Origin: Candidatus Thorarchaeota archaeon
Lineage (GTDB): Archaea > Asgardarchaeota > Lokiarchaeia > Sigyniarchaeales > SOKP01
Direction: 5' to 3'
Length of the DNA stretch: 64,000 nucleotides
Assembly (NCBI GenBank): GCA_048882645.1
Contig: JBHLRJ010000003.1
Span: forward strand, 2,409-66,408
The first letter of the stretch is position 1; each line of letters opens with the position of its first letter. A program made the translations under genes and the position numbers. The notes below the pieces were generated by a model. That model ran no database searches. It worked only from the letters and a program-made list of their open reading frames with translations, and had not been told where the DNA came from. Shown here piece by piece: positions 5,126-59,866 of this stretch.

Positions 5126-7051
5126 ATGCCCGATTTTAAAAATTGGTTCAAAAAAATCAACCTTCCAATAACCTATGATTCTACGGTTGAAGATGTGATT
5201 GAAACAAATTCTCAGCTGATAGATTTTAAAGTATTTGATGAATTTTTCCTCAGAGATGAAGGAATTACCATTAATAATTTTTTTAAGCTCCTCATTGAAG
5301 AAATTCTCAAATCGAGCCCCGACACTTTAGCATTGTTTAAAGATTTAAGTGTAATAAATCCTGAATTACTCACTAATATTAACAGAAAATGTGTTATTGC
5401 TAGCTATGACGTGGTAGATATAGAAACCGCGTTTGATGAGTTAGTCAATACAAAATTATTGGAAAAAAAAGCAGAAAGTGAATCGGAATATGAATATTTC
5501 ATTGACAGGGTTCAATTAGAGTATGCAATAATAGCAGAAAAAAAAACTCATGAAAAAGCGCTAAAATACTATGAAACTAAGAAAAAAGTACTTGGTGAGG
5601 ATAGAAATGATCTGGTTGAAGTTCTATTTCATAAGGCGGTAATTAACCCTAATGAAGAGTTAGTTTCTGAGTTTATTCAAATTATGGGTAAACTTAGCAT
5701 AATGGATTATGGATATGGAAATTTAGTCAATGTGGGGAAACTTTTACTTACTCTCGATGATAAATACAGTGCTCCAATTCAAGTTAGAATGGGAAATATT
5801 TATTCCGATTTAGGATACTTTAGAGAAGGAGAAAAGCAATATAAGGATGCTTTAGAGTCTTATAATAGGTTAGCAAAAAAATATTATAAGATCTATTTAC
5901 CTTATATTGCTGCTACTCAGAAAGCCCTTGGTAAACTTTATGTCGATCTAAAAAGATTTGAGGAAGCTGAAAAGGTTTTTCTCGAGATACTGGAGGTTTA
6001 TAAAGAATTAGAAGAAAAGTTTTATGATGTCCATTCAACTGATATTGATCCTGAAGGTGAAGTCCCCGAGGCCGACTTCCATACCAAAGCTATCGAAATC
6101 GATGATTTTGAGGATCCTGAGAGTTTATGTCAAGATGCGTTAAATGCCTACAATGAAGTAGCTCAAAAATATTATGACGTGTACTTACCTGATGTAACAA
6201 GAACCCAATCTTATTTTGGAAACATATGGTTTGATACAAAACTTTTAGAAGAAACTGGAAAGAAATCTCCTGAGTCTTTAAACTATCCCAAATTATTAGC
6301 AAAATTGAGTTATGATTCACATTTAGCTGACATTGCCACAACTCAAAATAATCTTGCGTTGATTTATCGTGAAATGGGGAGATTTGCTGAAGCAGAAAAA
6401 AGGCATCTTGAAGCCTTAAAAATTAGAAAAAAATTATTTGAGCAATACATCCAGAAAGAATCTCCAAATCTTGCTTTAACAATGATTGATCTTGGGGATC
6501 TCTATGTGATGTCATTTAGGTATGATGAGGCTGAGCCATTGTACCGAGATGCTTTACAAATCGCAAAGAATTTAGCCCTCCAAAATCCTGAGATGTATTT
6601 AGTTCCTGTGGCTAATCTTCAGAACAAAATTGGCAATGTAAATGTAAATACGCAAGATTATGAAGAAGCAGAACCTATGTATCTAGACGCCCTCGAAGTC
6701 TATAAGAAATTAGCGAAAAGATTTCCTAAAATTTATTTAGCTCATGTTGCAATAATCCAAAATAACCTTGGTAATCTGTATATACATTCAAGAGAATTAG
6801 ATAAAGCTCAAGAATACCTTAATGCCGCACTAAAGTCTGATCCTAACAATGATGATGTTTTATATAGCCATGCATGCCTTGAATCCCTTAAAAATAACAA
6901 GGAAAAAGCATTAGAATTTTTATCTAAAGCAATAGAAGTTAATAAAAAAGTAGCTGAATGGGCTCTGATGGATAATTATTTCGAAAGTATTAAGGATTTA
7001 AAAGAATTTAAGGAATTAACTGGTCAAGAGATTAAAACTACACAGGAATAA
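5126..7051 (+). CDS. TPR repeat protein (kinesin-light-chain-like TPR units) with an unknown N-terminal domain
   Basis: Repeated units of the type NLALIYREMGRFAEAEKRHLEALKIRKKL and LGNLYIHSRELDKAQEYLNAALK. Confidence 0.75.
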   Translation: MPDFKNWFKKINLPITYDSTVEDVIETNSQLIDFKVFDEFFLRDEGITINNFFKLLIEEILKSSPDTLALFKDLSVINPELLTNINRKCVIASYDVVDIETAFDELVNTKLLEKKAESESEYEYFIDRVQLEYAIIAEKKTHEKALKYYETKKKVLGEDRNDLVEVLFHKAVINPNEELVSEFIQIMGKLSIMDYGYGNLVNVGKLLLTLDDKYSAPIQVRMGNIYSDLGYFREGEKQYKDALESYNRLAKKYYKIYLPYIAATQKALGKLYVDLKRFEEAEKVFLEILEVYKELEEKFYDVHSTDIDPEGEVPEADFHTKAIEIDDFEDPESLCQDALNAYNEVAQKYYDVYLPDVTRTQSYFGNIWFDTKLLEETGKKSPESLNYPKLLAKLSYDSHLADIATTQNNLALIYREMGRFAEAEKRHLEALKIRKKLFEQYIQKESPNLALTMIDLGDLYVMSFRYDEAEPLYRDALQIAKNLALQNPEMYLVPVANLQNKIGNVNVNTQDYEEAEPMYLDALEVYKKLAKRFPKIYLAHVAIIQNNLGNLYIHSRELDKAQEYLNAALKSDPNNDDVLYSHACLESLKNNKEKALEFLSKAIEVNKKVAEWALMDNYFESIKDLKEFKELTGQEIKTTQE

Positions 7052-7091
7052 GAATAAAAAGTATATAACATTAATATTTGAGCGAAAAAAG

Positions 7092-7817
7092 ATGCAAGAT
7101 TTAAAAAAATGGTTTACGAAAGCAAAACTACTTTTGAAATTAGAAAGAAAACCTTTAACATGGGCTGGAAATTCAGATATTTTTCAATTATCAATTGCTA
7201 CAAAAGGATCGAAAAATAAACGAGAGATTTTTCGATTGTTTCCTGGAGATGAAGAAAATGAAGTGAGAGTAGTCGATGTTGATCCTGAAAAGCAACAGTT
7301 AATATTACTGGTAAATGAACCTTCCCGTGAATTTGTTACTGAAGAATGGAATTTCACAACTAAAAGGATGGAAGAGGTTAAACATAGAACTCCCGGTTTC
7401 ACCAGAAGATATTTATTAGGAATGGACGAAGCTCATTTATTCATTGCTGAGTTACCGCAAGAAGGAGCTATTAATAAAATAAAAGAGGCACATGAAATTC
7501 TCAAACCGGAATATGTAATTAAAAGTGAAAAAGAAACTAAAAGAATTAAAAGACAAGGGGAATGGTTTTTTATCCCTGTTACTACAAAAGAACAGAATTT
7601 AATCGAAGAAAATGAAAATTTCATTAAGAAAAAACAACCAATCGGGGGAGCAAATCCTCATATTGCTGATCTACTAATAAGAATTGATGATGAGATATAT
7701 GTAAAAGGAAAAGTTAAACACGTCGAACATCGAACGTTGAAATTAAATGGTTGGTTTAGAGTTCTAAGGAACACTGAAGTAACAAGTCGAACTAGAGTCC
7801 TTGGTTGGATAGATTAA
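7092..7817 (+). CDS. hypothetical protein
   Basis: 241-aa ORF lying 40 bp after the TPR gene; no family recognised. It shares the N-terminal M-x-D-x-K-x-W-F-x-K motif with 5126-7051. Confidence 0.5.
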   Translation: MQDLKKWFTKAKLLLKLERKPLTWAGNSDIFQLSIATKGSKNKREIFRLFPGDEENEVRVVDVDPEKQQLILLVNEPSREFVTEEWNFTTKRMEEVKHRTPGFTRRYLLGMDEAHLFIAELPQEGAINKIKEAHEILKPEYVIKSEKETKRIKRQGEWFFIPVTTKEQNLIEENENFIKKKQPIGGANPHIADLLIRIDDEIYVKGKVKHVEHRTLKLNGWFRVLRNTEVTSRTRVLGWID

Positions 7818-7843
7818 ATATATAACAGTACCCTGACTTTAGG

Positions 7844-8275
7844 ATGAAAAAAATCATTAAAGAATTCAAAAATAAATATTTCTTTCTCTCAAACTTTTTT
7901 CCCGTTAAAATTAAGATAGATGGAGTAGAATATAGATCTTCAGAACATTATTTTCAAGCAATGAAATTTACCGATCCCATAATTCAAAAACATATAATTA
8001 ATGCCCCTAGTGCTTCAGTTGCCAAAAAAATGGCTAAGAAGTATAATCGACGAGAAGATTGGTATGAAATCAGTTTGGATGTAATGGAGAAAGCATTAAG
8101 AACAAAGTTTGCCATACCCGAATTGCGCGATAAATTACTTGCTACAGATAATATGTATCTCCAAGAGGGTAATCGATGGAACGATACTTTTTGGGGTGTT
8201 GATTTACGTACAAGGAGAGGAAAAAATCATTTGGGTAGATTGTTAATTAAAATCAGGTCTGAATTAAAGAAATAA
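7844..8275 (+). CDS. NADAR (YbiA/DUF1768) family protein
   Basis: F..FS.F.P...IDG..Y.S.EHYFQAMKF motif and the C-terminal W..D.FWG......G.N.LG.LL pattern characteristic of NADAR domains (recalled, not searched). Confidence 0.75.
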   Translation: MKKIIKEFKNKYFFLSNFFPVKIKIDGVEYRSSEHYFQAMKFTDPIIQKHIINAPSASVAKKMAKKYNRREDWYEISLDVMEKALRTKFAIPELRDKLLATDNMYLQEGNRWNDTFWGVDLRTRRGKNHLGRLLIKIRSELKK

Positions 8276-8281
8276 AGATCA

Positions 8282-9178
8282 TTAATGCAGAGGTGGCTTC
8301 TTATTAAAAAAAGTTCGATAACAGTTACAACATGGGATCCCAAGAACAATCTTATTGGAATAATATTTATCGAAATCTTCGGAAATTAATTCTATTAATT
8401 GATTTTTAAGTTTAATATCTTTCTTCTTTTTGCTAAAATAAAAATTTAGAAGATAGTTAGTGTGGTTGTTTATTTTACAAAAAGGGCATCTTGAAAAATA
8501 CTCGATAAATCTATCACATAACCTTTTGGCTTTGCCATTAAGTGATTGGTATCGCTGGTCTAACACCTCTACGGGATAACGATTATTCCCTAACAATTGG
8601 CTAACGATATCTTCCACACTTTCTCTAATTGGTTCAACTTGCTCATAACTCACTCTTTTTGATGTACGAGAATATAATATGTTAGTAACTAATTGTTTAA
8701 TAATACAATCCTTTTTACTTTCTTCATAGATATTTGTTGAGTAATATGTAATGATTCCCTTATTCCTCACAAATTCGTTAATCTCCTCTGAATTTACTTC
8801 TGGTTCAAGATCACTTTTAGTGCCGATTAAGATTGTAGGGATATTCCCATTAATTTTTCTTATCAATTTTATCCATGCATCAAGATCTTCAAAAGTCTGG
8901 TGACGAGAAAGGTCAAAAAATAACAATGTTCCTGCAGAACCCTTAAAAAACGAAGGATAAAACAATGGTATTCGAACTCGTTGACCTATTTCCCAAGTAG
9001 CACACCTGCATAGATCACCATTATCTAAAAAACTGTCTACTACATCAAAATCTATCCCAAAATGCCGCATTGTATTAAATCCTCCACTTCTAGTATCTAT
9101 AGTACCTCTGATAAAGGTTGTTTTTCCCACATAGGACGATCCCACCACTGTAATTTTGATCCGCCAACTTGCAGACAT
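8282..9178 (-). CDS. Ras/Rab-like small GTPase with a C-terminal Cys-rich (zinc-ribbon-like) domain
   Basis: G1 GSSYVGKT, G3 WEIGQ, G4 TKSD. C-terminal SRCPFC..NH...GIPCCNC. GGAGAGG SD-like run before the ATG. Confidence 0.75.
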   Translation of the reverse strand: MSASWRIKITVVGSSYVGKTTFIRGTIDTRSGGFNTMRHFGIDFDVVDSFLDNGDLCRCATWEIGQRVRIPLFYPSFFKGSAGTLLFFDLSRHQTFEDLDAWIKLIRKINGNIPTILIGTKSDLEPEVNSEEINEFVRNKGIITYYSTNIYEESKKDCIIKQLVTNILYSRTSKRVSYEQVEPIRESVEDIVSQLLGNNRYPVEVLDQRYQSLNGKAKRLCDRFIEYFSRCPFCKINNHTNYLLNFYFSKKKKDIKLKNQLIELISEDFDKYYSNKIVLGIPCCNCYRTFFNKKPPLH

Positions 9179-9272
9179 GTCCTTACCTCTCCTTCAATAG
9201 TGATTAGAATTAGTTAAATAATGAATAAAAAAATATATTTCTAGAAATTGATTCAGTTCTAGAGTTCTCATT

Positions 9273-10361
9273 TTAAAATAAACTCATGTGAGCCAAATCT
9301 TCTGAAGCATCCTCTATAAATCCGCAATTGGGGCATATTTTTTTTCGCTGTTTCGGTTGTTTGCATGAAGGACAGTTAACAGAATAGAATGCTGTTATAT
9401 AAGCTTCTCCTTTGAGATTATGAGATTGTATTATCACACCATCAATTTCGATCTGGTTTAAACTGCTTTTATTCTCTTCTAATTCTGAAATCTCTTTAAA
9501 CATTTTCCTTGTCTTTTCAATTGCTTTCTTATAGGGTCCTTTCCCCTTCACTTCCCATGAGATATTCGATTCTATAGATTCAAATAATCCCTCTTGACGA
9601 ACTTGGAAATTACGTGGTGAACGATAAATTTCTACACCCTTAATTTCTCCTTCATTATTGATCACGACTACACCAACTGTATTTTTTGGAAACTTGACTT
9701 TCTTTGCCCTTTTTTTGATTCTTCCTCTTCTAGCTGATATTCCTAATGTATATTGTGAATGATCTGAAATTCCTTTTTCACTTGCCATTTCCTCACTGAC
9801 TTTATTCCACACTTTATATTGGCTAATATGGGAAGCTCCTATAAATCCAGAAGCACTAGAATATTTCATCGATCTCATTTCATTGAGCATTCCTCGACTG
9901 GCTTTTCCTCCGTACCCAAATGAAGCACCTGATGATAAACGATGAGGAGCATGTACACATTTAACACTGATGACTTGAGATATGCCTGCTTCAACCATTA
10001 CAGTGCCAATACAAATTCGATCTTGTGTTCCCTGCCCTAGAAAAATTTCTCCTTCCTCAATAAGAATTGGCATGTTTCCTAAGTTTTCAAAAACAATATG
10101 AGCTACTTCAGTCCCTTTATCAATGATATTACAAACTCCCGTCTCAATTGCTTCTGAAAGAGTAAGATAATCACGTTCTTCTTTTGGAATCTCATGCTTA
10201 AGAATCGGTACAAACGAAATTTCGTCTAAAATAACAGGAGTTCCTATTTCGAACCCATCCATTTCTAGCACACGCATTGCGAATTTTTTAATTGTTTCGG
10301 TCTTTGACATTTTCAAATTCAACTTATTTTTGTTATGTAGATTTTGAACTAAAGCCTTCAA
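9273..10361 (-). CDS. ARPP-1/DUF6569-like protein with a C-terminal zinc ribbon
   Basis: The motifs YLTLSEAIETG, EEGEIFLGQGTQDR, VKCVH, QYKVW and GVVVINNEGEIKGVEIY resemble the DUF6569/ARPP-1 pattern (from memory). C-terminal CPSC-x10-CPNC. The track start is TTG at 10361; the first ATG is at 10310. Confidence 0.5.
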   Translation of the reverse strand: MKALVQNLHNKNKLNLKMSKTETIKKFAMRVLEMDGFEIGTPVILDEISFVPILKHEIPKEERDYLTLSEAIETGVCNIIDKGTEVAHIVFENLGNMPILIEEGEIFLGQGTQDRICIGTVMVEAGISQVISVKCVHAPHRLSSGASFGYGGKASRGMLNEMRSMKYSSASGFIGASHISQYKVWNKVSEEMASEKGISDHSQYTLGISARRGRIKKRAKKVKFPKNTVGVVVINNEGEIKGVEIYRSPRNFQVRQEGLFESIESNISWEVKGKGPYKKAIEKTRKMFKEISELEENKSSLNQIEIDGVIIQSHNLKGEAYITAFYSVNCPSCKQPKQRKKICPNCGFIEDASEDLAHMSLF

Positions 10362-10505
10362 TTGTTATTTTTATAAACTAATTGAATTTTCGCTTTAAAT
10401 CTTGTATACCAAGAAAAAAAACTTATATAAACTTATGGATCACTAAATTTCATGGATCCTAGCTCAACCCTCCACATATATTAAAAAATAAAAAAAAATT
10501 AAAAA

Positions 10506-11405
10506 TTAAAATTTAAAAATTTCCCTAAATTTATCCTCCTTTAAAACATTAACTCCTAAGACATATTCCATATAGTTCAAACCATTCTTATGCCCTGCTT
10601 GGCTGAAACTAGCGCTTAAATCCTCACATAGGTATACATTTTTAAAATTGTGGATAACTTTTAATTCGAAAGTCAATAATTTCAATTTTACATCTGTTAC
10701 TACTCCAAAAACTCCAATAATTGCTTTCTCTGTTGAGCTATTATGATTATTAATGATAGAATCTAGTATAAAATCAAGTTTGGTTTCAGTAAAAGAGCTA
10801 AGACTGTTAGAATTGATTACTTGCGTAAAAGTGTTATAAGGAGGTGTTTCTACGTATTTTGCCAAGGATTCGATAAATTTTGCTCCATGCGATCCTTTTA
10901 TACAATGATATCCAAAGTTCGTCATTTCTTCTACCTGACTAGGATCAATTGGATCATGCCAATCTCTTAAATGTATAAAATAGTAGCGATCTTTATTATC
11001 AGCTTTATTTGTATCAGAAGCTTTTTTCATAAGATCGTCTATAAATTTTACTAACCTATCATTATCCCATAATCGATTTGATTGATCGATATTGATGTGG
11101 ACTCTGTGTTTATATTTTTTAATAAATTGATGGTAAGAATACTTTAACTCGTTTGCCCTAGGGTCATCAAAATTTTTTATCATTTCAATGAAATTATCAA
11201 TATCTTTCTCGCCTGGTGGTATTGTTTTATTTTTAAAATACCTTATCCATTGTTCTCTACACACTTCATAGCTTACTTTCCAAGGATCACTAATATCATT
11301 TTTAATTTCAGCTAGATATTCTCTTTCAATGAAATCATTCTGCATCGAATTTGTTATAATTATATATAAATTGCCAGATTCGTTATTTTCTATATACTTA
11401 GACAT
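10506..11405 (-). CDS. isochorismatase/nicotinamidase-fold protein with the catalytic Cys and Lys positions substituted
   Basis: IIITNSMQNDF, DWHDPID, YHCIKGSHGAKF and GVFGVVTDVKL align with the PncA motifs (vvD.QNDF, DWHP.H.SF, HCV.GT.GA.F, G.A.D.CV). ATG is preceded by GAGGGG, 12 bp after the WD40 gene stop. Confidence 0.6.
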   Translation of the reverse strand: MSKYIENNESGNLYIIITNSMQNDFIEREYLAEIKNDISDPWKVSYEVCREQWIRYFKNKTIPPGEKDIDNFIEMIKNFDDPRANELKYSYHQFIKKYKHRVHINIDQSNRLWDNDRLVKFIDDLMKKASDTNKADNKDRYYFIHLRDWHDPIDPSQVEEMTNFGYHCIKGSHGAKFIESLAKYVETPPYNTFTQVINSNSLSSFTETKLDFILDSIINNHNSSTEKAIIGVFGVVTDVKLKLLTFELKVIHNFKNVYLCEDLSASFSQAGHKNGLNYMEYVLGVNVLKEDKFREIFKF

Positions 11406-11417
11406 ATTTAGCCCCTC

Positions 11418-14159
11418 TTAATTTGTTTTTATTCCCCCTGTTCCTAATCTTCTTCTTGCTAGGACAGTTTTAATTGGTTTTTTAATCAAAATTAATATAA
11501 AAACAGTGATAAACAAGACACTTACAAATGCATTTAGACTTAATAGAATTATCCAAATAGGTTCTATAAAACGTCCAGGTTCCTCAAAAATATCTTTATA
11601 AAGAATTAAAACACTTATTATAGTGAAAAGAAAATCGAGCATTACCAATCCCGCAAGATATTTGTCTAGAATTTTCCCTCCTCTTGACCATGAACCTTTC
11701 CCAATTTTAATTATAGCATGTGGATTTGGAGGAGAGTGAAAATTATTTCTAAATGCTTCAAATAATTCAATGTCCCCTTTTACCTCCTTTCTAGATTCTA
11801 AAGGGTTTAAACTTTCAGTTAATTCAACGGAAATCTTTCTTATTTTAATTTTTGCATAATCTTCCACACTGTATCTCTCGTTTAATTTAAAGATACAATC
11901 AGAATAATAGAATTTATCAGGAATACCCTCCTTTGTATTATTGTAGGCCTTTTCATACGGTTCAGAATGCTTATCCTTTATTGATTTATACGGTTTTTTT
12001 AATATATATAATGGCACATATCGTTGATCATTTTCCTTTTCATTGTTTTCTTTTTTATCCTTTTGTTTTTTCTTCTCACTTTGTTCAGCCTTTGGCTTAA
12101 TTGATAGTTTAAAATCTGTAAATATTAACTTATCTTTGTCGCCACGATCGTCTTCAATATCTAGATTAACTGCTTTTAATAATGGTATGAATGTGGTTGG
12201 AACCCTATCTAAAACCATTAAGAACCTTAATTGTGATTGGGTTCGATCCCTGAGAATTATAAAGGGTTCTTGTTCATTTTTCCTATTTGAAAAACTATTA
12301 AAATTGGTAATTTCAATAAAACGTGCGTATTCGATTGGTTTTTCTATGTCTGTGGTTAAAAACAGTTTAAATTTCCATTGTAAATGGGGAACTTCATGAA
12401 ACATCTTTGTCGTACTGAACCAATAACTCTCATAATTTGTCCTTACACTATCGATATATATTCTCTGATCCTTGTCAACTCCCTCGAACTTTATAAATGA
12501 TGGTACAAAGAGAGCACCTAACTTTCTTGGATTATACCCTTCAATTGGATCTTTTAACCTTGTTTTAATCTCAGTATAGATCTTCTTTAATGATTCTTCA
12601 TCTTCATCCAAAGTTTTTACAATTTGTTTTAAATTAGGACCATATATTTTTTTATAGAGATCCTTATGCTTAAGCTCTAAAAGTTTAAGCTGCTGATAAA
12701 AATGCCATATTCGACCATAATTTCTGAGAATTAAGACTTTATTTTTCTTTATTGCAAAAATATATTGATCTCTAGGAGAAAGTAAGATCTGTCTCAAAAA
12801 ATCTAAACCCAAACCGTAATCTTTTAATTTTAACTCTTCGTGGTTCATTTGATGTTCTTTCTCTTTGCTTTTTTTCTGGAGCTTAATTTCATTATATATG
12901 TCGATTTCGTCATCAAGATTTATGTTTCTTACTAAAACTTTATCAGTTATATTCCATACCTTTATTGTGTTATCTTTTGAAGCAGAAAAAAGATATTTAT
13001 CGTCATCCTGGACAACTAATGATACAATCTCTTTAGTATGGTCAAACTTCTCGAAAATTTTCTTTCTTTTTTCGATATCCCATACCCTAACTACATTATC
13101 AAGGCAACCTGAAGCTACTTTAGTTCCATCTTTAAAGATTTTTACACAAGTTATACCATTTTCATGGGATCCGATTACTGATTCCTTCCTATCATTGTCT
13201 AAATCAAATTTATATATGTTATTATCATTGGAACCACTGATTAAAAATTTCTGATCCTTTCCATTATATAAATCAAATGTTAGAATCCACTCACCTTTTG
13301 TGCTTAGATTAGAATCACGTTGTATTGGTTGCTCACTAGAAGGTATTAGATGCAACTCTCCAATGAAATTTTCTCCAGTCTTATCTTTAGAATATATTCC
13401 GATAGTGTTAGCAGAAAAAAATATTCTAAATCCCTCTTTTAGATTTCCATCTAATTTATCTGCTAGTTTATCTGGTAAAATTTTGATATCAAAAATAGCT
13501 TTCTGAGTTTTACTCTCTTCTGAAAATTTTTGATAAAATTTAGGTTTTAAATTCCATTCTTTCTGTTTTTCATCAACATCACCAATCCAAACATATATTT
13601 CTCCGTTGATACTCCCCGCACATACAATCCATATTTCCTTATTATTTATTTCGGTTGTTAAAGCGTCAACACATAGCAACCAATTAGTTTTTTTTACTTC
13701 TCCTACACCCTCTCCTCTCTCTTCTGCTCTTATAGATCCTTCTAAAATAAATTCTTCTTTCCCTACCTTTTGCAAGATTTTATCTATTGACCATACACAT
13801 ACTCTTGGAATTTCACCTTCCTCAAGTTCAGAGCAAATTATTAAATATTCACCATTTGGAGTTATTACCATGCTTCTAACATCAAGATCTTTGCTTAAAC
13901 CTGTTTCTCGATAACATTTTAGCACTTGTCTTATGACTGGTTTTTGAGCTTTTTCTTCAATTTTGACCTTTTTCTTTACATCTTGCATTTCTATAGTTAA
14001 ATCATCTAATTTACTTGCATCAATAATAATTTCATTTTTACCTTGCCTAAGAACTATCTTTTTATCCTCTGTCTTAGCTTTCAATATATTAGTTATCTTC
14101 TGAGATGGGTCATCATATTTAGTTTCATTATGAGTATTACTTGTCAAATTATTCGCCAT
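11418..14159 (-). CDS. WD40 beta-propeller protein with a large middle region and a C-terminal two-helix membrane anchor
   Basis: Canonical WD units (GHENGITCVKIFKDGTKVASGCLDNVVRVWDI; DHTKEIVSLVVQDDDKYLFSASKDNTIKVWNI). C-terminal hydrophobic helices LVMLDFLFTIISVLILY and IWIILLSLNAFVSVLFITVFILILI. Confidence 0.8.
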   Translation of the reverse strand: MANNLTSNTHNETKYDDPSQKITNILKAKTEDKKIVLRQGKNEIIIDASKLDDLTIEMQDVKKKVKIEEKAQKPVIRQVLKCYRETGLSKDLDVRSMVITPNGEYLIICSELEEGEIPRVCVWSIDKILQKVGKEEFILEGSIRAEERGEGVGEVKKTNWLLCVDALTTEINNKEIWIVCAGSINGEIYVWIGDVDEKQKEWNLKPKFYQKFSEESKTQKAIFDIKILPDKLADKLDGNLKEGFRIFFSANTIGIYSKDKTGENFIGELHLIPSSEQPIQRDSNLSTKGEWILTFDLYNGKDQKFLISGSNDNNIYKFDLDNDRKESVIGSHENGITCVKIFKDGTKVASGCLDNVVRVWDIEKRKKIFEKFDHTKEIVSLVVQDDDKYLFSASKDNTIKVWNITDKVLVRNINLDDEIDIYNEIKLQKKSKEKEHQMNHEELKLKDYGLGLDFLRQILLSPRDQYIFAIKKNKVLILRNYGRIWHFYQQLKLLELKHKDLYKKIYGPNLKQIVKTLDEDEESLKKIYTEIKTRLKDPIEGYNPRKLGALFVPSFIKFEGVDKDQRIYIDSVRTNYESYWFSTTKMFHEVPHLQWKFKLFLTTDIEKPIEYARFIEITNFNSFSNRKNEQEPFIILRDRTQSQLRFLMVLDRVPTTFIPLLKAVNLDIEDDRGDKDKLIFTDFKLSIKPKAEQSEKKKQKDKKENNEKENDQRYVPLYILKKPYKSIKDKHSEPYEKAYNNTKEGIPDKFYYSDCIFKLNERYSVEDYAKIKIRKISVELTESLNPLESRKEVKGDIELFEAFRNNFHSPPNPHAIIKIGKGSWSRGGKILDKYLAGLVMLDFLFTIISVLILYKDIFEEPGRFIEPIWIILLSLNAFVSVLFITVFILILIKKPIKTVLARRRLGTGGIKTN

Positions 14160-14272
14160 TTTTTTAAGAATTAAAATATAGATTAATTGAAGTGACGTTT
14201 TAATTTAAGATTTTTTATAATCATCTTATAGAAATTAAAAAGAGATACTAACAGATTTTTTACAATGTACGT

Positions 14273-15070
14273 CTATGACTCTTTCGAAAACACTTTTTTG
14301 AAGCAGTTACAACACGGGATTCCAATCTTAATTTTACCTACTAAAAACTTATCAAAAAACTCAGAATCTTCCATAAGTTCAATAAGATTTTCCTTTAATC
14401 GCTTTGTAAAAGGATCATTAGAGAAGAAAACTCTATTTAAATTACTATGATGATTTTTTCCCAAACAAATGGGACATCGGGAAAAATACAAAAGGAATGT
14501 CTGATAGATATGTTTTTCTTGATCAGATAATTTTAGGTTTTCAGGTCTATAATAAACAATGTGTTCAAAAATACGGGAGACTATATTATCGAAAATCTGG
14601 GGAGTTTTCAGTTTGTCATGAGTAGAAATAAGATAAAATCTTGAAATTTCATTTGTTTCTACAAATTCACTAATCTCTTCCAAATTTATTTTGTCCTTTA
14701 TAGCTGATTTGAAAGCGATTAAAAAAATTGGAATTTGTCCAGAATATGATCTTATCTGTTCTAACCAATAATTTAAATCCTCAAAACTCTGTAAAACTGA
14801 AATATCATAGAATAGAAGACACGCTACAGCACCCCTAAAAAAGGTAGAACTCATAAATCGAAATCTTTGAGCACTATTAATATCCCAAATGCTTATAGTC
14901 AGACTGTCGCCATATTCGTTTGAACAAGATGTAGTTTTGATGTCAGTTCCTACAGTAATAAATGAATTCTTAAAAAAACTATTTATATTTTGCTCACACC
15001 CTTTAAAAAAAGCACTCTTAGCAGGATTCCATCCAACAGCCACAACCTTTACTTTAAATGAGCTAGACAT
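14273..15070 (-). CDS. small-GTPase-like protein with degenerate nucleotide-binding motifs and a C-terminal Cys-rich domain
   Basis: Ras-like fold pattern, but G1 is GWNPAKS, G3 is WDINSAQ and G4 is FKSA. The C-terminal SRCPIC..NHH...GIPCCNC is paralogous to 8282-9178. GGGGAG precedes the ATG. Confidence 0.6.
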   Translation of the reverse strand: MSSSFKVKVVAVGWNPAKSAFFKGCEQNINSFFKNSFITVGTDIKTTSCSNEYGDSLTISIWDINSAQRFRFMSSTFFRGAVACLLFYDISVLQSFEDLNYWLEQIRSYSGQIPIFLIAFKSAIKDKINLEEISEFVETNEISRFYLISTHDKLKTPQIFDNIVSRIFEHIVYYRPENLKLSDQEKHIYQTFLLYFSRCPICLGKNHHSNLNRVFFSNDPFTKRLKENLIELMEDSEFFDKFLVGKIKIGIPCCNCFKKVFSKES

Positions 15071-15231
15071 TATTATCTCCCCAAGAGAATTTAAAGGATG
15101 AAAAAGAAAATCCCATATTGAAATAGAAAATTCATGTATAAAAATTTTCAGTCTAATAAAAGAAAAATATTAAATTTTAGAATTAAAAGTAACGATTAAA
15201 GATTTATAATTCATTATTACTAATTGTAACT

Positions 15232-15666
15232 ATGAGATCCAATCCTATAGTGATTCGCATAATTAAGAGAAAAAAAGAGGTCTATTACCCTCTATTTACA
15301 CTCTCCATAACTTTTCTAATCTATTGGATCCTAATTATTTTCATTAATTTTATTGACAGCCAAGTTGTTTTACCATTTCTAGTATGGAATTTAACCATAT
15401 TAGTCTTCAGGTACTCCTTCGACTTGTATTATGAAAAAAAAAATGAAATTGAATCCCGTTCAAATCAAATATTAATTTTCTTATTTGTAATGACGATTTT
15501 TACAACTTCCATTATTGTATTAAGATTGGTTGTACTGATATTATTTAATATATATTATGTTATTCCAATCTCAATCGATTTGTTTCTCTCACTTTTAATT
15601 TATTTTGTTTTACGAAAAGAAATAAAGAAATATTATTCTGCTAAAGATAAAGAGATTCCTAAATAA
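15232..15666 (+). CDS. membrane protein (hypothetical)
   Basis: Four hydrophobic helices; no family recognised. Confidence 0.45.
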   Translation: MRSNPIVIRIIKRKKEVYYPLFTLSITFLIYWILIIFINFIDSQVVLPFLVWNLTILVFRYSFDLYYEKKNEIESRSNQILIFLFVMTIFTTSIIVLRLVVLILFNIYYVIPISIDLFLSLLIYFVLRKEIKKYYSAKDKEIPK

Positions 15667-19884: not shown

Positions 19885-19927
19885 TTGACAAAATATAGAT
19901 TAAATTATTGGTTGAAAAGTGATAAAT

Positions 19928-20788
19928 ATGAATGGTTTAATAATCTTGTTTTCCCAAACAGGTGGAACAGAAAAAATTGCGTTAAAAATCCGAGAAGGTA
20001 TCATAAATAGTGGAAATAAATGTGAAATCATTAAAATAAAGAGAGCCAAACTAGCGAATTTATCCCATTACGATTTAATTGGTATTGGCACCCCGACTTT
20101 CTATTATAGGGAACCAATAAATGTCCGAAATTTCATTCAGAATGTGGCAAAGTCGGATGGAAAACATGTTTACTTATTTTGTACACATGGAAGTGTAATT
20201 GGGAATACATTTTACTATATGGAAGAAGAATTAAAAAAGAAGGGATATACAATAATAGGGACTTTTGACTCTTATTCTGCATCTTCTTTACAATTCTATC
20301 CTGAAATCATGCATACTATTAATCACCCTGATGAAATAGAGCTTGAAGAAGCATATTCTTTTGGAAAAAGTATATGTGATACTAGTTTGAGAATAAAAAA
20401 TGGAGAAACAAGCCTAATTCCAAAATTTGAACTGATTGATGATACTTGGTGGGCCCAAGATTCCAAAAAATTAACTCCTGAACTTCTGAGGAATATCTTT
20501 CCTAAATTTAAAATTAATGCTGAGCTATGTACTAAATGCCTTGCATGTCAAGATGAATGCCCTACTGATGCCATCGATATTGAAGCACACCCTCCTGAAA
20601 TTCAAAAAGAATCTTGCATATTTTGTGGATACTGTGAAAAGTTATGCCCAGAAGGAGCAATTGAAACAGATTGGAAATTCATGAGAATTGCATCTAAAGG
20701 AAATTTAGAAAAATATGTTCAAGAGCTTAAAAAAGCAGAAGAAGAGGGAAAATTCCGACCTTATATTGATTACGAAAAAATAACTTAA
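19928..20788 (+). CDS. flavodoxin-like domain fused to a 2x[4Fe-4S] ferredoxin domain
   Basis: [15 protein letters not shown] flavodoxin-type N-terminus. [12 protein letters not shown] and [12 protein letters not shown] cluster motifs. ATG at 19928 (GTG at 19919 is possible). Confidence 0.8.
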
Positions 20789-22937: not shown

Positions 22938-23732
22938 TTAATTTTGAAGTTGTTTAATATGTTTTTCAATATTTTTTATAGTTGAAGGAGGAAGTTCACT
23001 TAGCGATTTTCCTTGAAACCTATTAAAACAACTACAACAAAATCTTAATTCATTTACTCTAAATTTACCTAAGGTATGTCTTCTTCCAGGTTCTTCTAAC
23101 CATGCTCCGCAGTTAACACATTTCTTAAAAAGATTAATTCTTCTATTAAGTTGAATTCTTGTTGATAAACCCAAATCCCTTCTTACGTTATTTATATTAC
23201 ATCTGATTCTTTGCATATCAGTTTGAAAAAGAGAACAGAGAACCATATCAAACAATTCATTAACATTTCTTCCCGTTTTATGAGATACTTCAATGAATCC
23301 ATCCAAATTGAAGTCTCTTGATAGTTGAAGCCCTTCTGAATAAGAGACATCTCTACAGGTTTCCAAATCTGAGTTGGTTCCCGCTAAGATTATAGGTATA
23401 TTTCCTGCATTTTCTCTAACAACCTGTAACCACTTGGGGAAATTTTCCAGTGTAAACTTATTTGTAATATCATAGAGAAAAATTGCACTATCGGTGCCCC
23501 TACAGTATTGAGAAAGTAAGAACCTAAATCGTTCTTCGCCCCCAAAATCCCAAATTTGTATTTTTGCCTTTTTTCCTTCAAAACTAACAGTCTTGGAGTA
23601 AAAATCAACTCCGATAGTTAATCCTAATCCTTCTGTATAAAATCCTGTTATATATCGGATTGTTAAGGAGGCTTTTGGGACAGAAGAATCCCCTAACAAC
23701 ATAACCTTAAAAGTATAATCATAATCTGTCAT
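22938..23732 (-). CDS. Rab-like small GTPase with an atypical P-loop and a C-terminal CxxC...CCxC domain
   Basis: G1 GDSSVPKA (no GK[ST]), G3 WDFGGEE, G4 TNSD, G5 SHKTG. C-terminal CVNCGAW...FCCSCF. Confidence 0.7.
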   Translation of the reverse strand: MTDYDYTFKVMLLGDSSVPKASLTIRYITGFYTEGLGLTIGVDFYSKTVSFEGKKAKIQIWDFGGEERFRFLLSQYCRGTDSAIFLYDITNKFTLENFPKWLQVVRENAGNIPIILAGTNSDLETCRDVSYSEGLQLSRDFNLDGFIEVSHKTGRNVNELFDMVLCSLFQTDMQRIRCNINNVRRDLGLSTRIQLNRRINLFKKCVNCGAWLEEPGRRHTLGKFRVNELRFCCSCFNRFQGKSLSELPPSTIKNIEKHIKQLQN

Positions 23733-24324: not shown

Positions 24325-25383
24325 CTAGACCAAAGTCTCAAAAATAGTTTTCGCTAGGTATGGGAATGATATTGTTTGATTTTTATACTCGGATAGAATT
24401 CTTTTGACTTCCTCAAATCTGTTTTTCAAGAGATTATGAAATTCATTAGATTTTAAGAAATCGTTAAACAACTCTGCGAATTCCAATTTAAACTTGTCTA
24501 TTCGCATTTCCTCTTTATCAAATAAATTGATCTCCCGTTTGAGTTCATAAATATGATTATAAAGATCCTCCCCAAAGATAGAGATATCATTTTGATAAGG
24601 TATCCCTTTTATTTCTCCTAATTGAAATGATTCACCTGTAGAGTTAATTAAAGATATTTGGTTTAAGCTCTCCCATGTTAAATTTGGTCCTAAAATGGGG
24701 ATAATTGGTATTTGATTGTCTAGTGCCAACTGTAGTTCAAATTTACATGGTTCAGAGTGTAATGAATTTTCAGTAGCAAAAAATAATAAGATATGACTTA
24801 ATGGGACGTATTTTCTCATAAATTCTATAAAGTTCATACCACCCTGAATCGCTTCTTCACTATAATATACTTTATAAATTTCTTCTCGCTCAGAAAGAAA
24901 TTTAGATGTATCCAGTATATTGATCAAATTGCTCTCAAAATCCTTTTCAGCATGACTACAAAACACAGTAATTGCATCATGTCTCCTGCAATAATCAAAT
25001 ATTTCAACTATATTGTTCTTTACAACCTGTGTCCACTCACCTTCCCATGGATTCCCATCTAAATGGATCTCATTTACACTTTTTAAATGCCACAATTTCA
25101 TAGGAAGTCCAGTTAATCTGTTACTCGTTAATCCGAGAAATTGTATCTTTTCGAGATTCATTATCGAATCTGGAAGGTTGGGTAGCTGATTATATGATAA
25201 GTTTAATATTTTTAGCGACTTCAGTTTATGAAAAGATTCTGGAAGTTTCTTAATTTTGTTGAAATATAGATTCAAATTTATCAAAAATCGTAAATTACCA
25301 AAACTTTCCGGCAACTGTTCTAATTTATTATTACTACAATCTAACTCTTCAAGTGTGATCAAATCTCCAAAACAATCTGGCAA
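24325..25383 (-). CDS. LRR + TIR-like domain protein (downstream part of an in-frame TAA-interrupted GTPase-LRR-TIR gene)
   Basis: LRR units (LxxLxLxxNxLxxLP) continue in register from the upstream ORF. TIR-like region ITVFCSHAEKDF ... ILLFFATENSLHSEPCKFELQLA. No ATG; the first codon is a TTG directly after the TAA. Confidence 0.7.
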   Translation of the reverse strand: MPDCFGDLITLEELDCSNNKLEQLPESFGNLRFLINLNLYFNKIKKLPESFHKLKSLKILNLSYNQLPNLPDSIMNLEKIQFLGLTSNRLTGLPMKLWHLKSVNEIHLDGNPWEGEWTQVVKNNIVEIFDYCRRHDAITVFCSHAEKDFESNLINILDTSKFLSEREEIYKVYYSEEAIQGGMNFIEFMRKYVPLSHILLFFATENSLHSEPCKFELQLALDNQIPIIPILGPNLTWESLNQISLINSTGESFQLGEIKGIPYQNDISIFGEDLYNHIYELKREINLFDKEEMRIDKFKLEFAELFNDFLKSNEFHNLLKNRFEEVKRILSEYKNQTISFPYLAKTIFETLV

Positions 25384-26490
25384 TTATTCTAATCGATTTT
25401 CAGCTAAGTCAAGTTGTTTTAGAGATTTTAATTGACAGACTACTTCTGGAAGATGAATAAAATGGTTTCCATTCAAGTTTAGATAATCAAGCTTCTCTAA
25501 TCTATTCAGAGAATCAGGAAGATCTGATATCCTATTTCCCCTTAAGGATAAATATTCGAGCAATTCCAACTTCCCTATTGATGAAGATAAATTCTCTAAA
25601 TTGTTTTTAGTAAGACCTAAAATTTTAAGATTTTTAATTGTAAAGACAAATTCTGGAATACTTGATATTAAATTATCATAAATCCTCAATTCTTCTAGTG
25701 AATTAAGTTTTGTTAGAATATCGGGGATTGCCTTTAATCCACATCTAAATAAGCCGAGACCTTTTACTTGATCTCCATCGATAATTACCCCAAAAGGTTC
25801 TGAAGATAATTTAGTGACTACTGGGATTTCTTGTTTTATTAATTTCTCTAGTTCTTCAAGAACTCTTGCTTGTTCTTGTTCAATTCCCCATCTATTCTGC
25901 TTAATGATTTGTTCAATTTCCATTGTAGGACGAAAACCAACTTCATCCTCGCTAATTTTATAATCAATTCCTTTACTTTTTAAAATTTGAGATATTAATT
26001 CCTGGAAAAGCATATCAACGTTTTTTCCTGTTTTTGCAGAGGTTTCAACATATGGGCAAGACAATTTATTAGCGACTGATATTGCATCCGACTCTGACAC
26101 TTTTCGATCATCTACTAAATCACTTTTGTTTCCTGCTAGAACTATTGGAATCCGACCTGTAGTTTGATATAACTCATCAAGCCAAGCAGTAACGCTTAAG
26201 TTAAAGGTATTAGCATCAGCAAGATCAAATACGACAATGGCTGCAGAAGCTCCCCTGAAAAACGTAGTTTTTGGTAATTTTAAACGTTCTTGGCCTGCCA
26301 TATCCCATAAGGTAAGATTAAGTACTAGATCTCCCACTTCTATTTGTTTGATAGAAAAATCAGCCCCGATAGTTAGAATATAGGATTCTTTGAAATGACG
26401 ATCTACATACCTCCTAATCAGACTGGTCTTCCCAACTCCAAAATCTCCTATTAACACAATTTTAAAGACTAAAGTGGTTTTTTCAGACAT
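25384..26490 (-). CDS. Ras/Rab-like (Roc-type) small GTPase fused to LRRs
   Basis: G1 GDFGVGKTS, G3 WDMAGQE, G4 NKSD, G5 SAKTG. A pre-LRR motif EQARVLEELEKLIKQEIP is followed by 5-6 LRRs. Ends at TAA 25384-25386 inside an LRR. Confidence 0.8.
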   Translation of the reverse strand: MSEKTTLVFKIVLIGDFGVGKTSLIRRYVDRHFKESYILTIGADFSIKQIEVGDLVLNLTLWDMAGQERLKLPKTTFFRGASAAIVVFDLADANTFNLSVTAWLDELYQTTGRIPIVLAGNKSDLVDDRKVSESDAISVANKLSCPYVETSAKTGKNVDMLFQELISQILKSKGIDYKISEDEVGFRPTMEIEQIIKQNRWGIEQEQARVLEELEKLIKQEIPVVTKLSSEPFGVIIDGDQVKGLGLFRCGLKAIPDILTKLNSLEELRIYDNLISSIPEFVFTIKNLKILGLTKNNLENLSSSIGKLELLEYLSLRGNRISDLPDSLNRLEKLDYLNLNGNHFIHLPEVVCQLKSLKQLDLAENRLE

Positions 26491-46029: not shown

Positions 46030-49000
46030 TTAAATATCTTGATACCCACGCTTTTTAGCTTCAGAATATGCTTTTTCGGCTTCTTTCTTTTTACCCATTT
46101 CTTCATTAGCAGCTCCTATATTTGCCCAATATACTGCTTCATCTGGATTATTTTCAGCTGCCTCCTTGAAACATGACACAGCATCTTTAAATTTACGTTG
46201 ATTGAAGTGTAATAATCCAATAGCATTCCAAATTCCTGCATTCTTAGGGTTAAGATCCAAGGCTTTTTTAAAATATTCAATCGCTTTTTTGTACTCAGCC
46301 AAATTCTCATAAGCCCTTCCTATGTTCTCAAGATAAATGTCATCTGTAGATTTAAGTTGATGAGCTTTTTCATATTGTTTAATTGCATCTTCATATCTTT
46401 CCATGTGAAAATATACATTTCCGAACATATTCCAAGTGGATGATTCATTGGGATTTACTTCCAACGCTTTATTATAATATTCAATCGCTTTATCATATTC
46501 TTCTAACTGATCATAAACACCCCCCATAATCGAAAGATAGAATTCATTTGGGGGTTCTAATTCAATGGCTTTTTCATAATATGTAATCGCTTCATTATAG
46601 TTTTCTAAACGTAAATAAAGATCTCCTAATTTATACCATGTGGACGCATCATCTGGATTAACATCCAAAGCTTTATTGAAATATTCTATTGCTTTATCAA
46701 ATTCCCCTAATTCACTATATGATCCTCCTATATTCTCAAGATAGACTCCCTTTGTTTCAAGCTCTACGGCTTTTTCATAGTTAGTGATTGATTTATGGTA
46801 CTCTCCCATCGCATAATAAACATTACCTAACCTATTCCAATTAGACGAACTTTCTGGATTGATATCCAGAGCTTTATTTAAGTACTCAATCGCTTTATCA
46901 TATTGGTTTAAAAGATTATATGATATGCCTATAACCGAAAGATACAATTCACTCTTTGGTTCAAGTTCTAAAGCCTTTTCATATTTTGTAATCGCTTCTT
47001 GGTATTTTTGCATGTAATAAAAAACATTTCCGAATTTATACCAAACCGACGGATCATCTTGTTTAATTTCCAAAGCCTTATTATAATATTCAATCGCATT
47101 ATCGTATTCTTTTAACTCGGTATAAGATCCTCCTATATTTTCATAATAGACTTCATCATCAGGCTCTAGTTCTACAGCTTTTTTATAATTAGCAATCGAC
47201 TCATGAAATTTCTCCATACTATAATACACATTTCCTAATTTATTCCAAGTAGATGCCATCTTTGGGTTAAGTTCCAACGTCTTTTCAAAATATTCAATGG
47301 CTTTTTCATGTTGTCCTAATTTTTCATAAGCTCCCCCCAAATTTTCATGGTAAACATCGTTCTTAGGATCTACCTCGATAGCTTTCTCATATTCTTTAAT
47401 CGCCTCTTCGTAATTTTTTAGGTAATAATAAACATTTCCTATTTTATTATGGCTTGAAGACCTTTCTGGATTAATTTCCAAAGCTTTCTTATAATAATCA
47501 ATCGCTTTCTCGTGTTGATCCATATCTTCATAAGTTCCCCCTATATTCTCATGGTAAACTTCAATCAAAGGATCAAGCTCAACAGCCATTTCATATTGTT
47601 TAAGTGCTTCCTCATAATCTTCCATATGATAATACACATTGCCTAATCTATTCCAAATAGACGATTGTTTCGGATTAACTTCCAAAGCTTTTTTAAAATA
47701 TTCAATTGCCTTATCATATTTTTTTAATTGATCGTACACTCTTGCAATATCTGAAATAAAGAATTCATTACTCTTGAAAATCTCATGGGCTTTTTGATAA
47801 TACTCTAATGCTTCCTCGTACTTTTCTTGTTCATAACTCAGATTCCCAAGTCCCGACCAAACTTGAGGATTTGTAGCATTAATTTCCAATGCCTTTTTAA
47901 GAGTTTCTGTAGCTTTATCGAATTTTTTAAGTCTTGTGTAAGCACCTGCTAAATTTATATAGGCAATTGCATCATTGGGGACAATTTCGATTGCTTTTTT
48001 ATACATTTTAATTGATTCTTCATATTCCTCTTTCTCATAATAAATATGTCCAAGTCCCGTCCACCCCCAACTTGATCTGATATTAGATTCTTTACGAAGA
48101 TCAAGAAAATCACTGACTTCATCTGTAGGGCTTAGTTTTGTTGTTTTTTCATAACATTCTCGAGCCTTTTCATAATCTTTTTGAAATCTATAGATATCTC
48201 CAAGTCCTGACATCGCATCAGTATTCAGATTATCTAATTCAAGAGCTTTCTCGAAACATTTCCTTGATCGATCATAATCTTTTATTCTATAATATGAATA
48301 TCCCATATTAGACCAGAGATAGGATTCAGAACTATTCAATTTCAACAATTTTTGATAGGTATCAATCGCTTCTTGATCTTTTCCCAATTTTGAATATACT
48401 AAAGCTAAGGTGTTTAATACAGATCCACTATTTTCATTGATAGCGAGAGCTCGGTTAATGTATTCCATCGCTTTATCCATATCAAATAAACAATAACTAA
48501 TATATGCAATATCATCAAGTGCATATTCATTATTAGGATCATATTGCAGTACTTCTTCTGCCAGTTTTAATCCTTCGTCATATTGCAGCTTATAATAATA
48601 AATTCCGGCTAAAAGCAATAGTAAATATTCATTTTTTGGATGATCTTTTTGTAAATCTTTAAGGATTTTAAATGCCTCATCATGTTTCTTTTGACCAATT
48701 AAAAGTTCACTTCTTAACAAAAGGCATTCAAATGAATCGGGCTTACGTGCATGGATATAATTAACATACTTCTCCGCAGATTCATAATCTTTAATTTCAA
48801 TATTAAGGCGTCCGAGCGCTATGGCTCGATTATTACTTGGTTCAACTGCTTCTATTTCATTTATTAAAGTCTCAACATAGTTTTTTCCTAAGCCTGGTTT
48901 CCATAACCATTTTGAGATAATAAAAGGATCCTCGGCAATTTGATCAATTATCCCTTGAATTTCATCTACCTCAAGATCAGGTTCTGTAGATTCATCTTTT

Positions 49001-59500: not shown

Positions 59501-59628
59501 AACACCTCCGTTGGAATTTCTAAAAGTAAATATTTACATTGTCTGAAAAACTTTCCATTCACATAGATATTCGTCTCATATCCTTCTAATTTGAGGGTAA
59601 GATATTCATTAATCTTAAATTCCGCCAT
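56539..59628 (-). CDS. large protein (~1029 aa) with a C-terminal LRR domain
   Basis: C-terminal ~200 aa has regular LxxLxxLxLxxNxLxxLPxSIGNL repeats; the N-terminal ~800 aa is unrecognised. ATG at 59628 is preferred over GTG at 59637. Confidence 0.75.
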   Translation of the reverse strand: MAEFKINEYLTLKLEGYETNIYVNGKFFRQCKYLLLEIPTEVLEDYEEIDSIDEAAETLDHSLEGQDVYTYDIPPETEFWGHCSNMQAWAENNYDTRILHRNLAFVLLKELTQAGDPVARAVFKEEIAKRLESRHPTVIKFLILEGYVPLLNEYELESLFETPSKWLIESFIELLHNEFLAYLEALRSQGRKIQFLKKNEQAIPVMTTVKKLAKFRNPKLIEGIFMGSDIYSLIYLYLEQGFNDYYIQNDLDFRERITNILISGLEHKDKYIFSFSLEALVFYSYIRFTKWHRRSIDYQEYKRKGGIRVKNHLSEKNYEEFVYNVAENLLKFYDSELFNYKLHLVAYSVFFADFGNPARKGIDLLRTQGIAELKEIADKSLLIIEVEFSEEDKNEREISQKIEIETLKILNVKEINVLIPEDTGKILVENIVYQLSREKGNRTLFGNAMGICRYVGEFHAIELGEGVFSILRQYNVELLDIIFALRLFEYLTAEECVFIANNINLTLTMKNAFTAIANKIEYDHTKNKFASNVPFMDWYPFYIENLCIFLRNLKGKLSPQKIQHFLTFLENNFLEGLPSPQFWNLVLKLHITEPSVEDVVFFYKWYRVEGESGLDRRKWDTVEEISKCSNIPEAGLEAILTEKDMFAFRNAIGSELLKKMGPSRLIPLFKNPSLNFSSSVLQILPVFKNKQYREGYIKFLKEIEDLASIPIIIETDYEGKQKMREILAEKDQLKHLDREKFWNLFPKEILRLREIEDISHHSFSYMSHKYVKSLTSGKRLSFSLKDDQLIFFSGAYCKLKDEQVRKIFDIILDFPLIIRLCLNHNNFQTLPEEIGIFKNLEAIGLAYAGITSLPDSIGELTSLEQLEINYNHLTALPNSIGNLTSLKKLYINSINQITQLPNSIGNLKSLENLSLSWNPLTSLPDTIGNLIHLNQLSIEACPLKTLPESIGNLTSLAYLRMAETKIETLPSSMKNLKNLKFIQVSNHLLHDMPKLRALVKPLKNLEVRIGFESLLMGNLMSNEIFKDAM

Positions 59629-59866
59629 TAAGAACACTCGTGATTATAGTCAAAAAATAATTTTTGCCTTTATTATAAAAACACAAGATATATCGTTTAA
59701 AAACTTTTATCCCCTCTGTTCCTTACCTTGTTTACAAGATGATTAATTTCAGGTTTCTAATTGTTGAATTTTTATTGGTATGCATGATCTCTTTTAAAGG
59801 AATAAACTTTTAAAAATAAATGGAATCTTAATAACATAAGACAAGACTTTTATAGGAAGAATATCC

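Follow-up and report, generated by a model that had tools for sequence, protein, structure and literature searches.

The five-gene cluster at positions 8282-15070 of a 64,000-nucleotide stretch of archaeal DNA (Candidatus Thorarchaeota archaeon, GenBank assembly GCA_048882645.1, contig JBHLRJ010000003.1, positions 2,409 to 66,408; the whole stretch is called the window below) is, with a probability of roughly 0.6, a lineage-specific juxtaposition of separable modules that includes one Asgard-wide gene pair, and not one five-gene machine. This pair encodes a 913-aa WD40 protein with a membrane hairpin (WD40-TM, 11418-14159) and a nicotinamidase-like protein of 299 aa (10506-11405), and it is previously undescribed. 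An earlier note on this DNA had treated the cluster and a converging NADAR gene as a single NAD/ADP-ribose module. The five minus-strand open reading frames (ORFs) on which it was based were all found: upstream of the pair a Ras-fold, putative pseudo-GTPase with a Cys4 tail (GTPase-A, 14273-15070), and downstream of it an ARPP-1/DUF6569 protein (ORF 9273-10361) and a Ras-family GTPase with a Cys4 tail (GTPase-B, 8282-9178). Pfam also backs each of the domain assignments (Isochorismatase only marginally), with Ras/Roc matches of 68 and 54 bits for the two flanking genes and a WD40 match for the 913-aa protein. The window is AT-rich (~30% G+C), and its proteins match best to those of Promethearchaeota (Lokiarchaeota-type Asgard archaea).

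The two genes of the pair are separated by a junction of only 12 bp on the minus strand (11406-11417), which reads TAA-GAGGGGCTAAAT-ATG from the WD40 stop codon onwards and contains the ribosome-binding motif GAGGGG, exactly as described before; judged from the sequence, this arrangement indicates translational coupling. When one genome per species was scanned with a family profile, 40 loci were obtained, 24 of them from Asgard archaea, and in each of these 24 the nicotinamidase-like gene directly follows a WD40-TM gene of the same orientation. Among all fetched loci the pair was co-directional in 29 of 29 cases, with a median gap of -11 bp and usually an AGGAGG-type motif upstream. ARPP-1, GTPase-B and NADAR were missing from 24/24 Asgard pair loci, and GTPase-A was present only in L001, in inverted orientation. 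Same-strand adjacency in diverse contexts thus marks the WD40-TM gene and its nicotinamidase-like partner as a conserved operon, and because the flanks vary between lineages, it is these two genes that form the conserved unit. In the main lineage the surroundings of the pair are stable and consist of housekeeping genes (LSm, roadblock, nadA). At two loci (L001, 11564-14313; L132, 5455-8498) it adjoins an ortholog of a 1133-aa tetratricopeptide repeat (TPR) gene which in the window (46030-49431) is 32 kb away from the pair. The pair occupies different chromosomal slots among related genomes. Genes for leucine-rich repeat (LRR) proteins are found beside it in 18 loci; we did not count this as evidence, since such genes are numerous in these genomes and the clustering applied here was driven by the repeats.

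For the nicotinamidase-like protein, the match to PF00857 (Isochorismatase) is marginal, with 28.8 bits against a cut-off of 27. An AlphaFold2 (AF2) model calculated from 28 homologs reached a mean predicted local distance difference test score (pLDDT) of 86 and a predicted TM-score (pTM) of 0.86, and a Foldseek search of the PDB returned the nicotinamidases 3O93, 3S2S and 5ZN8 as top matches (E ~1e-9, TM (target) 0.65-0.76). Profile, confident model and structural neighbours therefore agree on the nicotinamidase fold that had been assigned to this protein, and its description as catalytically altered proved correct as well: in the alignment an invariant Lys240 takes the place of the Cys nucleophile (TDVK instead of TDxC), S20 that of the Asp, and Asn or Ser that of the Lys. 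With none of the canonical Asp-Lys-Cys triad present in the alignment, the protein is, as far as its sequence can tell, unable to use the canonical amidase mechanism. The motifs D148-W-H150 and H167-C-x-K-G-x-x-G-A-x-F are invariant in the family, and the predicted metal/pyridine-site residues D148, H150 and H167 do not vary among 28 Asgard sequences and are also conserved among the bacterial ones. As ~16 bacterial relatives carry identical motif changes, including the invariant Lys at the Cys position, this Lys-variant group is a distinct conserved clade and not a decayed enzyme. The clade is rare, with 350 representative clusters among 1.84 billion at E <= 1e-3.

Several members of the clade are fused to other domains. 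Three Asgard homologs (P0018, P0020 and P0021) carry an N-terminal TIR domain, and bacterial homologs are fused to a TCAD9 kinase-like domain and a DSP-type phosphatase, the latter being replaced by NUDIX in a tandem paralog. These TIR and phosphatase/NUDIX fusions, together with the presence of nadA (quinolinate synthase NadA) directly downstream of the pair in 14/24 Asgard loci, support an NAD-related role of the nicotinamidase-like protein. One TIR-fused homolog (L049, 8001-9329) has no WD40-TM neighbour and is divergently oriented to a SIR2_2-TPR gene, with a VapBC toxin-antitoxin pair nearby. At the bacterial loci L026, L028, L030 and L032, the Lys-variant/TCAD9/DSP-phosphatase proteins adjoin genes for a cyclic nucleotide (cNMP)-gated ion channel and SpoIIE/STAS partner switching as well as a glutaminase with ankyrin and EF-hand domains; the tandem paralog ending in NUDIX is found at L032.

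The WD40-TM protein starts with a disordered N-terminus, which is followed by a beta-propeller (~aa 76-480), a helical domain (483-586), a beta-rich domain (595-820) and a two-helix membrane hairpin (aa 823-892) with basic residues behind it. Its AF2 model had a pLDDT of 72.8, and Foldseek of the full model led to generic propellers only. Homologs were found only in Asgard archaea, all with the same architecture. No Pfam match was obtained for aa 450-913 even at E <= 5, and PDB sequence, PDB profile and fold searches with the C-terminal half gave no relatives, which includes the beta-rich domain at aa 595-820. A resemblance of this half to RGS8 (PDB match, E ~0.8) disappeared with a family profile and is ascribed to chance.

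Further evidence for the pair as a unit came from the comparison with the near-identical loci L130 and L131, in which flanking genes and intergenic regions are 89-97% identical to the window at the DNA level. GTPase-A (93%), ARPP-1 (96.6%) and GTPase-B (94%) fall into this range, whereas the WD40-TM and nicotinamidase-like genes reach just 67-72%. Synonymous divergence (dS, Nei-Gojobori) was 1.8 and 2.0, and thus saturated, in the pair versus 0.11-0.37 in the background; the ratio of nonsynonymous to synonymous divergence (dN/dS) was 0.12-0.15 in the pair and similar everywhere (0.12-0.25). As this ratio is as low in the pair as in its surroundings, positive selection in place did not drive the divergence; the pair was either swapped as a unit for a deeply diverged version, or the two alleles are both ancient and have persisted. 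As read from the alignments, the divergent segment extends ~20 nt beyond the WD40 start codon on one side and ~60 nt beyond the nicotinamidase-like stop codon on the other, corresponding to a hyperdivergent cassette at approximately 10446-14180 on the minus strand. Since the replacement touches only these two genes, the pair is a unit separate from the GTPases and ARPP-1.

A second, independent case was observed at L019 in another chromosomal slot, with flanks 55-89% identical to the main lineage but only 41-44% identity for WD40-TM and 45-49% for the nicotinamidase-like protein, compared with 85-91% for the latter in control pairs of similar flank divergence. The nicotinamidase-like alleles fall into discrete groups. 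At the cassette boundaries neither mobile-element genes nor true repeats were found, only AT-rich chance matches. Assembly chimerism was considered and judged unlikely, as the beta allele and the same junctions occur in the independent assemblies of L130 (NCBI) and L131 (Logan); the junctions of the alpha allele are those of the window alone. L134, which carries a beta-group allele, has flanks without a counterpart in the window and was hence uninformative as a same-background comparison.

The order of all five genes has a much narrower distribution. The cluster is real and recurs in L130 and L131, which show the exact order of the window, and was found nowhere else; as their flanks are 89-97% identical in DNA, the shared order is ordinary synteny. 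At least 22 other WD40/nicotinamidase-like loci lack all of the other genes, which speaks against a single five-gene system. Within the window's clade the genes appear in further arrangements: GTPase-A in reverse next to GTPase-B and ARPP-1 in forward and NADAR in reverse orientation (L041, L042, L050 and L052), GTPase-A in reverse next to WD40-TM and the nicotinamidase-like gene in forward orientation (L001), the nicotinamidase-like and WD40-TM genes in reverse next to a forward GTPase-B (L051), and variants thereof (L053 and L070). Apart from the WD40/nicotinamidase-like junction, the intergenic gaps among the cluster genes are 94-195 bp. What remains of the proposed NAD/ADP-ribose module is an NAD theme for the nicotinamidase-like protein, the GTPase/pseudo-GTPase reading and an apparent co-regulation of ARPP-1 and GTPase-B, but not one five-gene system.

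ARPP-1 (PF20208/DUF6569, 108 bits) carries a C-terminal zinc ribbon, and its start is most likely the ATG at 10310, which corrects the ORF 9273-10361 to 9273-10310 and leads to 345 aa, as in its orthologs. Cys118 (VKCVHAPH) and Gln96 (GTQDR) are invariant in 15 orthologs; an absolutely conserved Cys and Gln are the hallmark of the ARPP-1 family (PMC9503650). Across Promethearchaeota, Helarchaeota and Hermodarchaeota, Asgard orthologs share 55-72% identity, and distant ARPP-1 genes had housekeeping neighbours in 5/7 contexts (L043 and L045-L048).

Upstream of ARPP-1 (10362-10441, minus strand) we found an element of ~60 nt with a TFB recognition element (BRE)/TATA sequence CCATAAGTTTATATAA at 10423-10438, a spacer, the inverted repeat TCTTG-GTATA-CAAGA at 10400-10414 and a conserved leader. 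The element is unique within the window, whereas relatives carry it 5' of both GTPase-B and ARPP-1, and more distant ARPP-1 genes keep a related core. An RNA structure was considered for this region, with a weak signal (6-bp hairpin, -2.8 kcal/mol, one independent compensatory change), and an Rfam scan of 7800-15400 at E <= 1 gave zero matches; we therefore read the element as promoter plus operator. As both genes have this specific element in common, ARPP-1 and GTPase-B, the latter 94 bp downstream of ARPP-1 in the window, are probably co-regulated, and on the same reading of the element they would be transcribed separately from the WD40/nicotinamidase-like operon. A scan for sigma-70 promoters showed no enrichment (42 versus 38 expected), and this model is inapplicable to archaea.

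The paralogy claimed for the two GTPases could be verified, with 32% identity (E = 1e-44) and a CPxC...GIPCCxC tail in both. GTPase-A shows a degenerate G1 (VGWNPAKS) and G4 (FKSA), and its G1, G3 and G4 are all non-canonical; in GTPase-B, G1 and G4 are canonical and G3 is altered (WEIGQ, ExxG for DxxG). By these motifs the description as GTPase and putative pseudo-GTPase holds. Cys-tailed GTPases are a multi-copy family with three copies in the window, the third Ras-family paralog being encoded at 22938-23732 on the minus strand with a CxxC...CCxC tail. Where adjacent pairs of Cys-tailed GTPases were strictly detected (L041, L052, L059 and L091), one member had a canonical P-loop and the other did not in 4/4 cases, which suggests recurrent GTPase/pseudo-GTPase pairing within this family. 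Ras-family genes are dense, however, with at least 4 among ~52 window genes, so flanking by a GTPase has a high background, and in ~75 further metagenome loci (L055-L129) the Cys-tailed GTPase family was unlinked to the other cluster genes. Gating by the GTPases, as envisaged before, is unsupported. The GTPases are missing from most pair loci.

NADAR (PF08719, 91.2 bits against a gathering cut-off of 35.1) is the last gene of a convergent plus-strand operon at 5126-8275, which encodes a TPR protein (5126-7051), a 241-aa protein (7092-7817) and NADAR itself (7844-8275) with gaps of 40 and 26 bp. The stop codons of NADAR and GTPase-B are indeed exactly 6 bp apart, but NADAR ends a separate operon and is not a part of the cluster. 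NADAR together with the gene for the 241-aa protein or the TPR gene is also retained beside ARPP-1 in L041 and L050. The 241-aa protein has no Pfam match; it is found beside NADAR with 69% aa identity in L050 and is missing from L041. The defence role that had been suggested was not borne out: in PADLOC-DB v2 the five cluster proteins had no match besides a generic repeat and NADAR hit only the candidate PDC-M42C, and the cluster is flanked by membrane and metabolic genes, not by a defence island.

From these data the following model can be proposed. The translationally coupled operon, as the sole part conserved across Asgard archaea, would form a first module, in which the beta-propeller of WD40-TM may face the cytoplasm while the protein is tethered to the membrane via its C-terminal helical hairpin. 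The cytosolic nicotinamidase-fold subunit might bind nicotinamide or an NAD-derived nucleotide, or process it by non-canonical chemistry, and may dock on the propeller, so that the resulting membrane-associated complex would respond to NAD metabolites. The pair behaves as one exchangeable unit, and on at least two occasions a deeply diverged version has presumably taken the place of both genes. ARPP-1 and GTPase-B, probably co-regulated via their common element, would be a second module placed beside the pair in this clade, with GTPase-A as a putative pseudo-GTPase partner of GTPase-B, and NADAR would belong to a separate and unrelated convergent operon.

Several observations weigh against this modular reading. 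In the window's family-level clade, GTPases, ARPP-1 and the pair remain near one another in at least five different arrangements, and in one more distant genome ARPP-1 is located 14 kb from the pair on the same contig. Linkage of the modules is therefore suggestive in that single clade, to which it is confined, and some functional linkage is possible. The proximity of nadA also has to be named here, but as all 14 loci belong to one syntenic lineage it amounts to about one observation. In addition, the invariant polar residues H103, H145, R147, E160, K240 and C260 could equally signal an active enzyme and not a sensor. The persistence of the same neighbours through rearrangements, the distant ARPP-1, the TIR fusions of the nicotinamidase-like family and the ties of ARPP and NADAR to ADP-ribose processing by comparative genomics (PMC9503650) would all agree with the five genes and NADAR forming one NAD/ADP-ribose-sensing defence or signalling system gated by a GTPase/pseudo-GTPase pair. 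We nevertheless regard such a system as quite improbable, as the exact order occurs only where the flanks are near-identical, the modules are independent in most genomes, there are gaps of 94-195 bp, a dedicated promoter element precedes ARPP-1, NADAR converges from its own operon and PADLOC was negative. Its proteins also evolve slowly, as seen from ARPP-1 across Asgard classes, the cassette replacement ends exactly at the edges of the pair, and Ras genes are very dense in the genome.

Two further explanations concern the pair itself. It might be a conflict or self/non-self module with the propeller as sensor, the nicotinamidase-like subunit as reader of an NAD-derived signal, e.g. the product of a TIR protein, and the membrane hairpin as effector, its allelic diversity being maintained by selection. 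In line with this idea, deeply diverged alleles have twice independently taken the place of a whole pair in a conserved slot, the alleles form discrete groups, TIR-fused versions of the domain are encoded next to SIR2-TPR and VapBC genes, LRR-TIR genes are common nearby, and the pair occupies several chromosomal slots. The idea appears unlikely, since in the main lineage the pair has stable housekeeping neighbours and its divergence does not exceed that of its flanks, the nicotinamidase-like protein often being more conserved than these; moreover, dN/dS is low, there is no PADLOC match, no mobile-element genes or boundary repeats were found at the cassette, and the hairpin has no known effector activity. 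A wider form of the same thought, namely a novel type of Asgard module for recognition or immunity that reads a TIR-type NAD-derived signal at the membrane, is diversified by repeated cassette exchange and is wired in the window's clade to a GTPase/pseudo-GTPase switch and ARPP-1, seems distinctly unlikely to us. The pair could also be a housekeeping device for NAD salvage or homeostasis, i.e. an active metal-dependent amidase or hydrolase that employs the Lys and other residues in place of Cys and is localised to the membrane by WD40-TM. The retained metal-site motifs, the many invariant polar residues, nadA directly downstream in 14 loci, strong purifying selection and the stable context of the main lineage would fit, yet all three canonical catalytic residues are changed, and we know of no precedent for a Lys at the nucleophile position among solved isochorismatase-fold enzymes. 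As TIR and kinase/phosphatase fusions suggest signalling, and as replacement of a whole pair is unusual for a housekeeping enzyme, this explanation is very improbable.

Compared to known systems, the nicotinamidase-like protein is closest to the nicotinamidase/pyrazinamidase PncA, with which it shares the fold and the D-W-H and H-C-x-x-G-x-x-G-A-x-F motifs. It differs by the Lys in place of the catalytic Cys, by replaced Asp and Lys triad positions, by a ~100-aa helical insertion after strand 1, and by the obligate pairing of its gene with one for a WD40 membrane protein in a rare and distinct sequence clade. Bacterial multidomain proteins that combine the Lys-variant domain with TCAD9 and a DSP-PTPase 'Swiss Army Knife' phosphatase or NUDIX show the same motif changes, but there the domain is fused in cis and encoded beside cNMP-channel and partner-switching genes, whereas the Asgard domain is a separate protein paired with WD40-TM, or TIR-fused. 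Among the papers searched, none describes TCAD9 or 'Swiss Army Knife', and none connects this isochorismatase-like family to Asgard archaea.

Membrane-anchored beta-propeller regulators of small GTPases, such as the eukaryotic Sec12, consist of a cytoplasmic propeller and a C-terminal membrane anchor. WD40-TM likewise combines a propeller with a C-terminal anchor and has genes for small GTPases as neighbours in the window's clade, but no sequence or structural match beyond a generic propeller was found and the GTPases do not accompany most pairs. The conflict systems for ADP-ribose processing centred on ADP-ribosylglycohydrolase (ARG; Iyer, Burroughs, Anantharaman, Aravind 2022, PMC9503650) are resembled in that a bona fide ARPP-1 with the hallmark Cys and Gln is present and a NADAR gene is adjacent to it in the window's locus. 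No ADP-ribosylglycohydrolase was detected among ~48 window ORFs scanned with Pfam, however, and the cluster and its flanks lack a coupled phosphatase (Rhodanese-phosphatase (R-P), calcineurin-like, HD or HAD), Nudix or a WYL regulator; an R-P phosphatase was seen only in bacterial relatives of the nicotinamidase-like domain. Asgard ARPP-1 is, in addition, slowly evolving and mostly stand-alone.

If these results hold, a rare branch of the nicotinamidase fold would have given up cysteine chemistry while keeping the pyridine-site motifs, and would have been joined repeatedly to TIR, NUDIX, kinase and phosphatase domains, which would make it a candidate for a new sensor or enzyme for NAD-derived molecules. 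Its invariant Asgard partnership with WD40-TM, the C-terminal half of which lacks detectable relatives, would then provide a well-defined target in the archaeal lineage that is closest to eukaryotes. The replacement of a whole pair between otherwise near-identical genomes would represent an unusual archaeal population-genetic signature that points to selection on allelic diversity. At the same time, an attractive but over-extended five-gene model is corrected.

Of three TIR-like proteins reported elsewhere in the window, two passed Pfam (24325-25383 and 53852-55264) and the third was not confirmed. The minus-strand gene at 53852-55264 encodes an LRR-TIR_2 protein, and no significant TIR match was obtained for the large LRR proteins at 56539-59637 and 59957-62278. 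On the minus strand as well, a Ras-LRR ORF (25384-26490) and an LRR-TIR_2 ORF (24325-25383) lie in one frame with a single in-frame TAA at 25384-25386, so that 24325-26490 may represent a ROCO-like Ras-LRR-TIR gene that has been split or pseudogenised, unless the interruption is an assembly error. Finally, a plus-strand flavodoxin/4Fe-4S gene of the window (19919-20788) is missing from the 90-97% identical L130 (838 gap columns) and thus represents an indel polymorphism.

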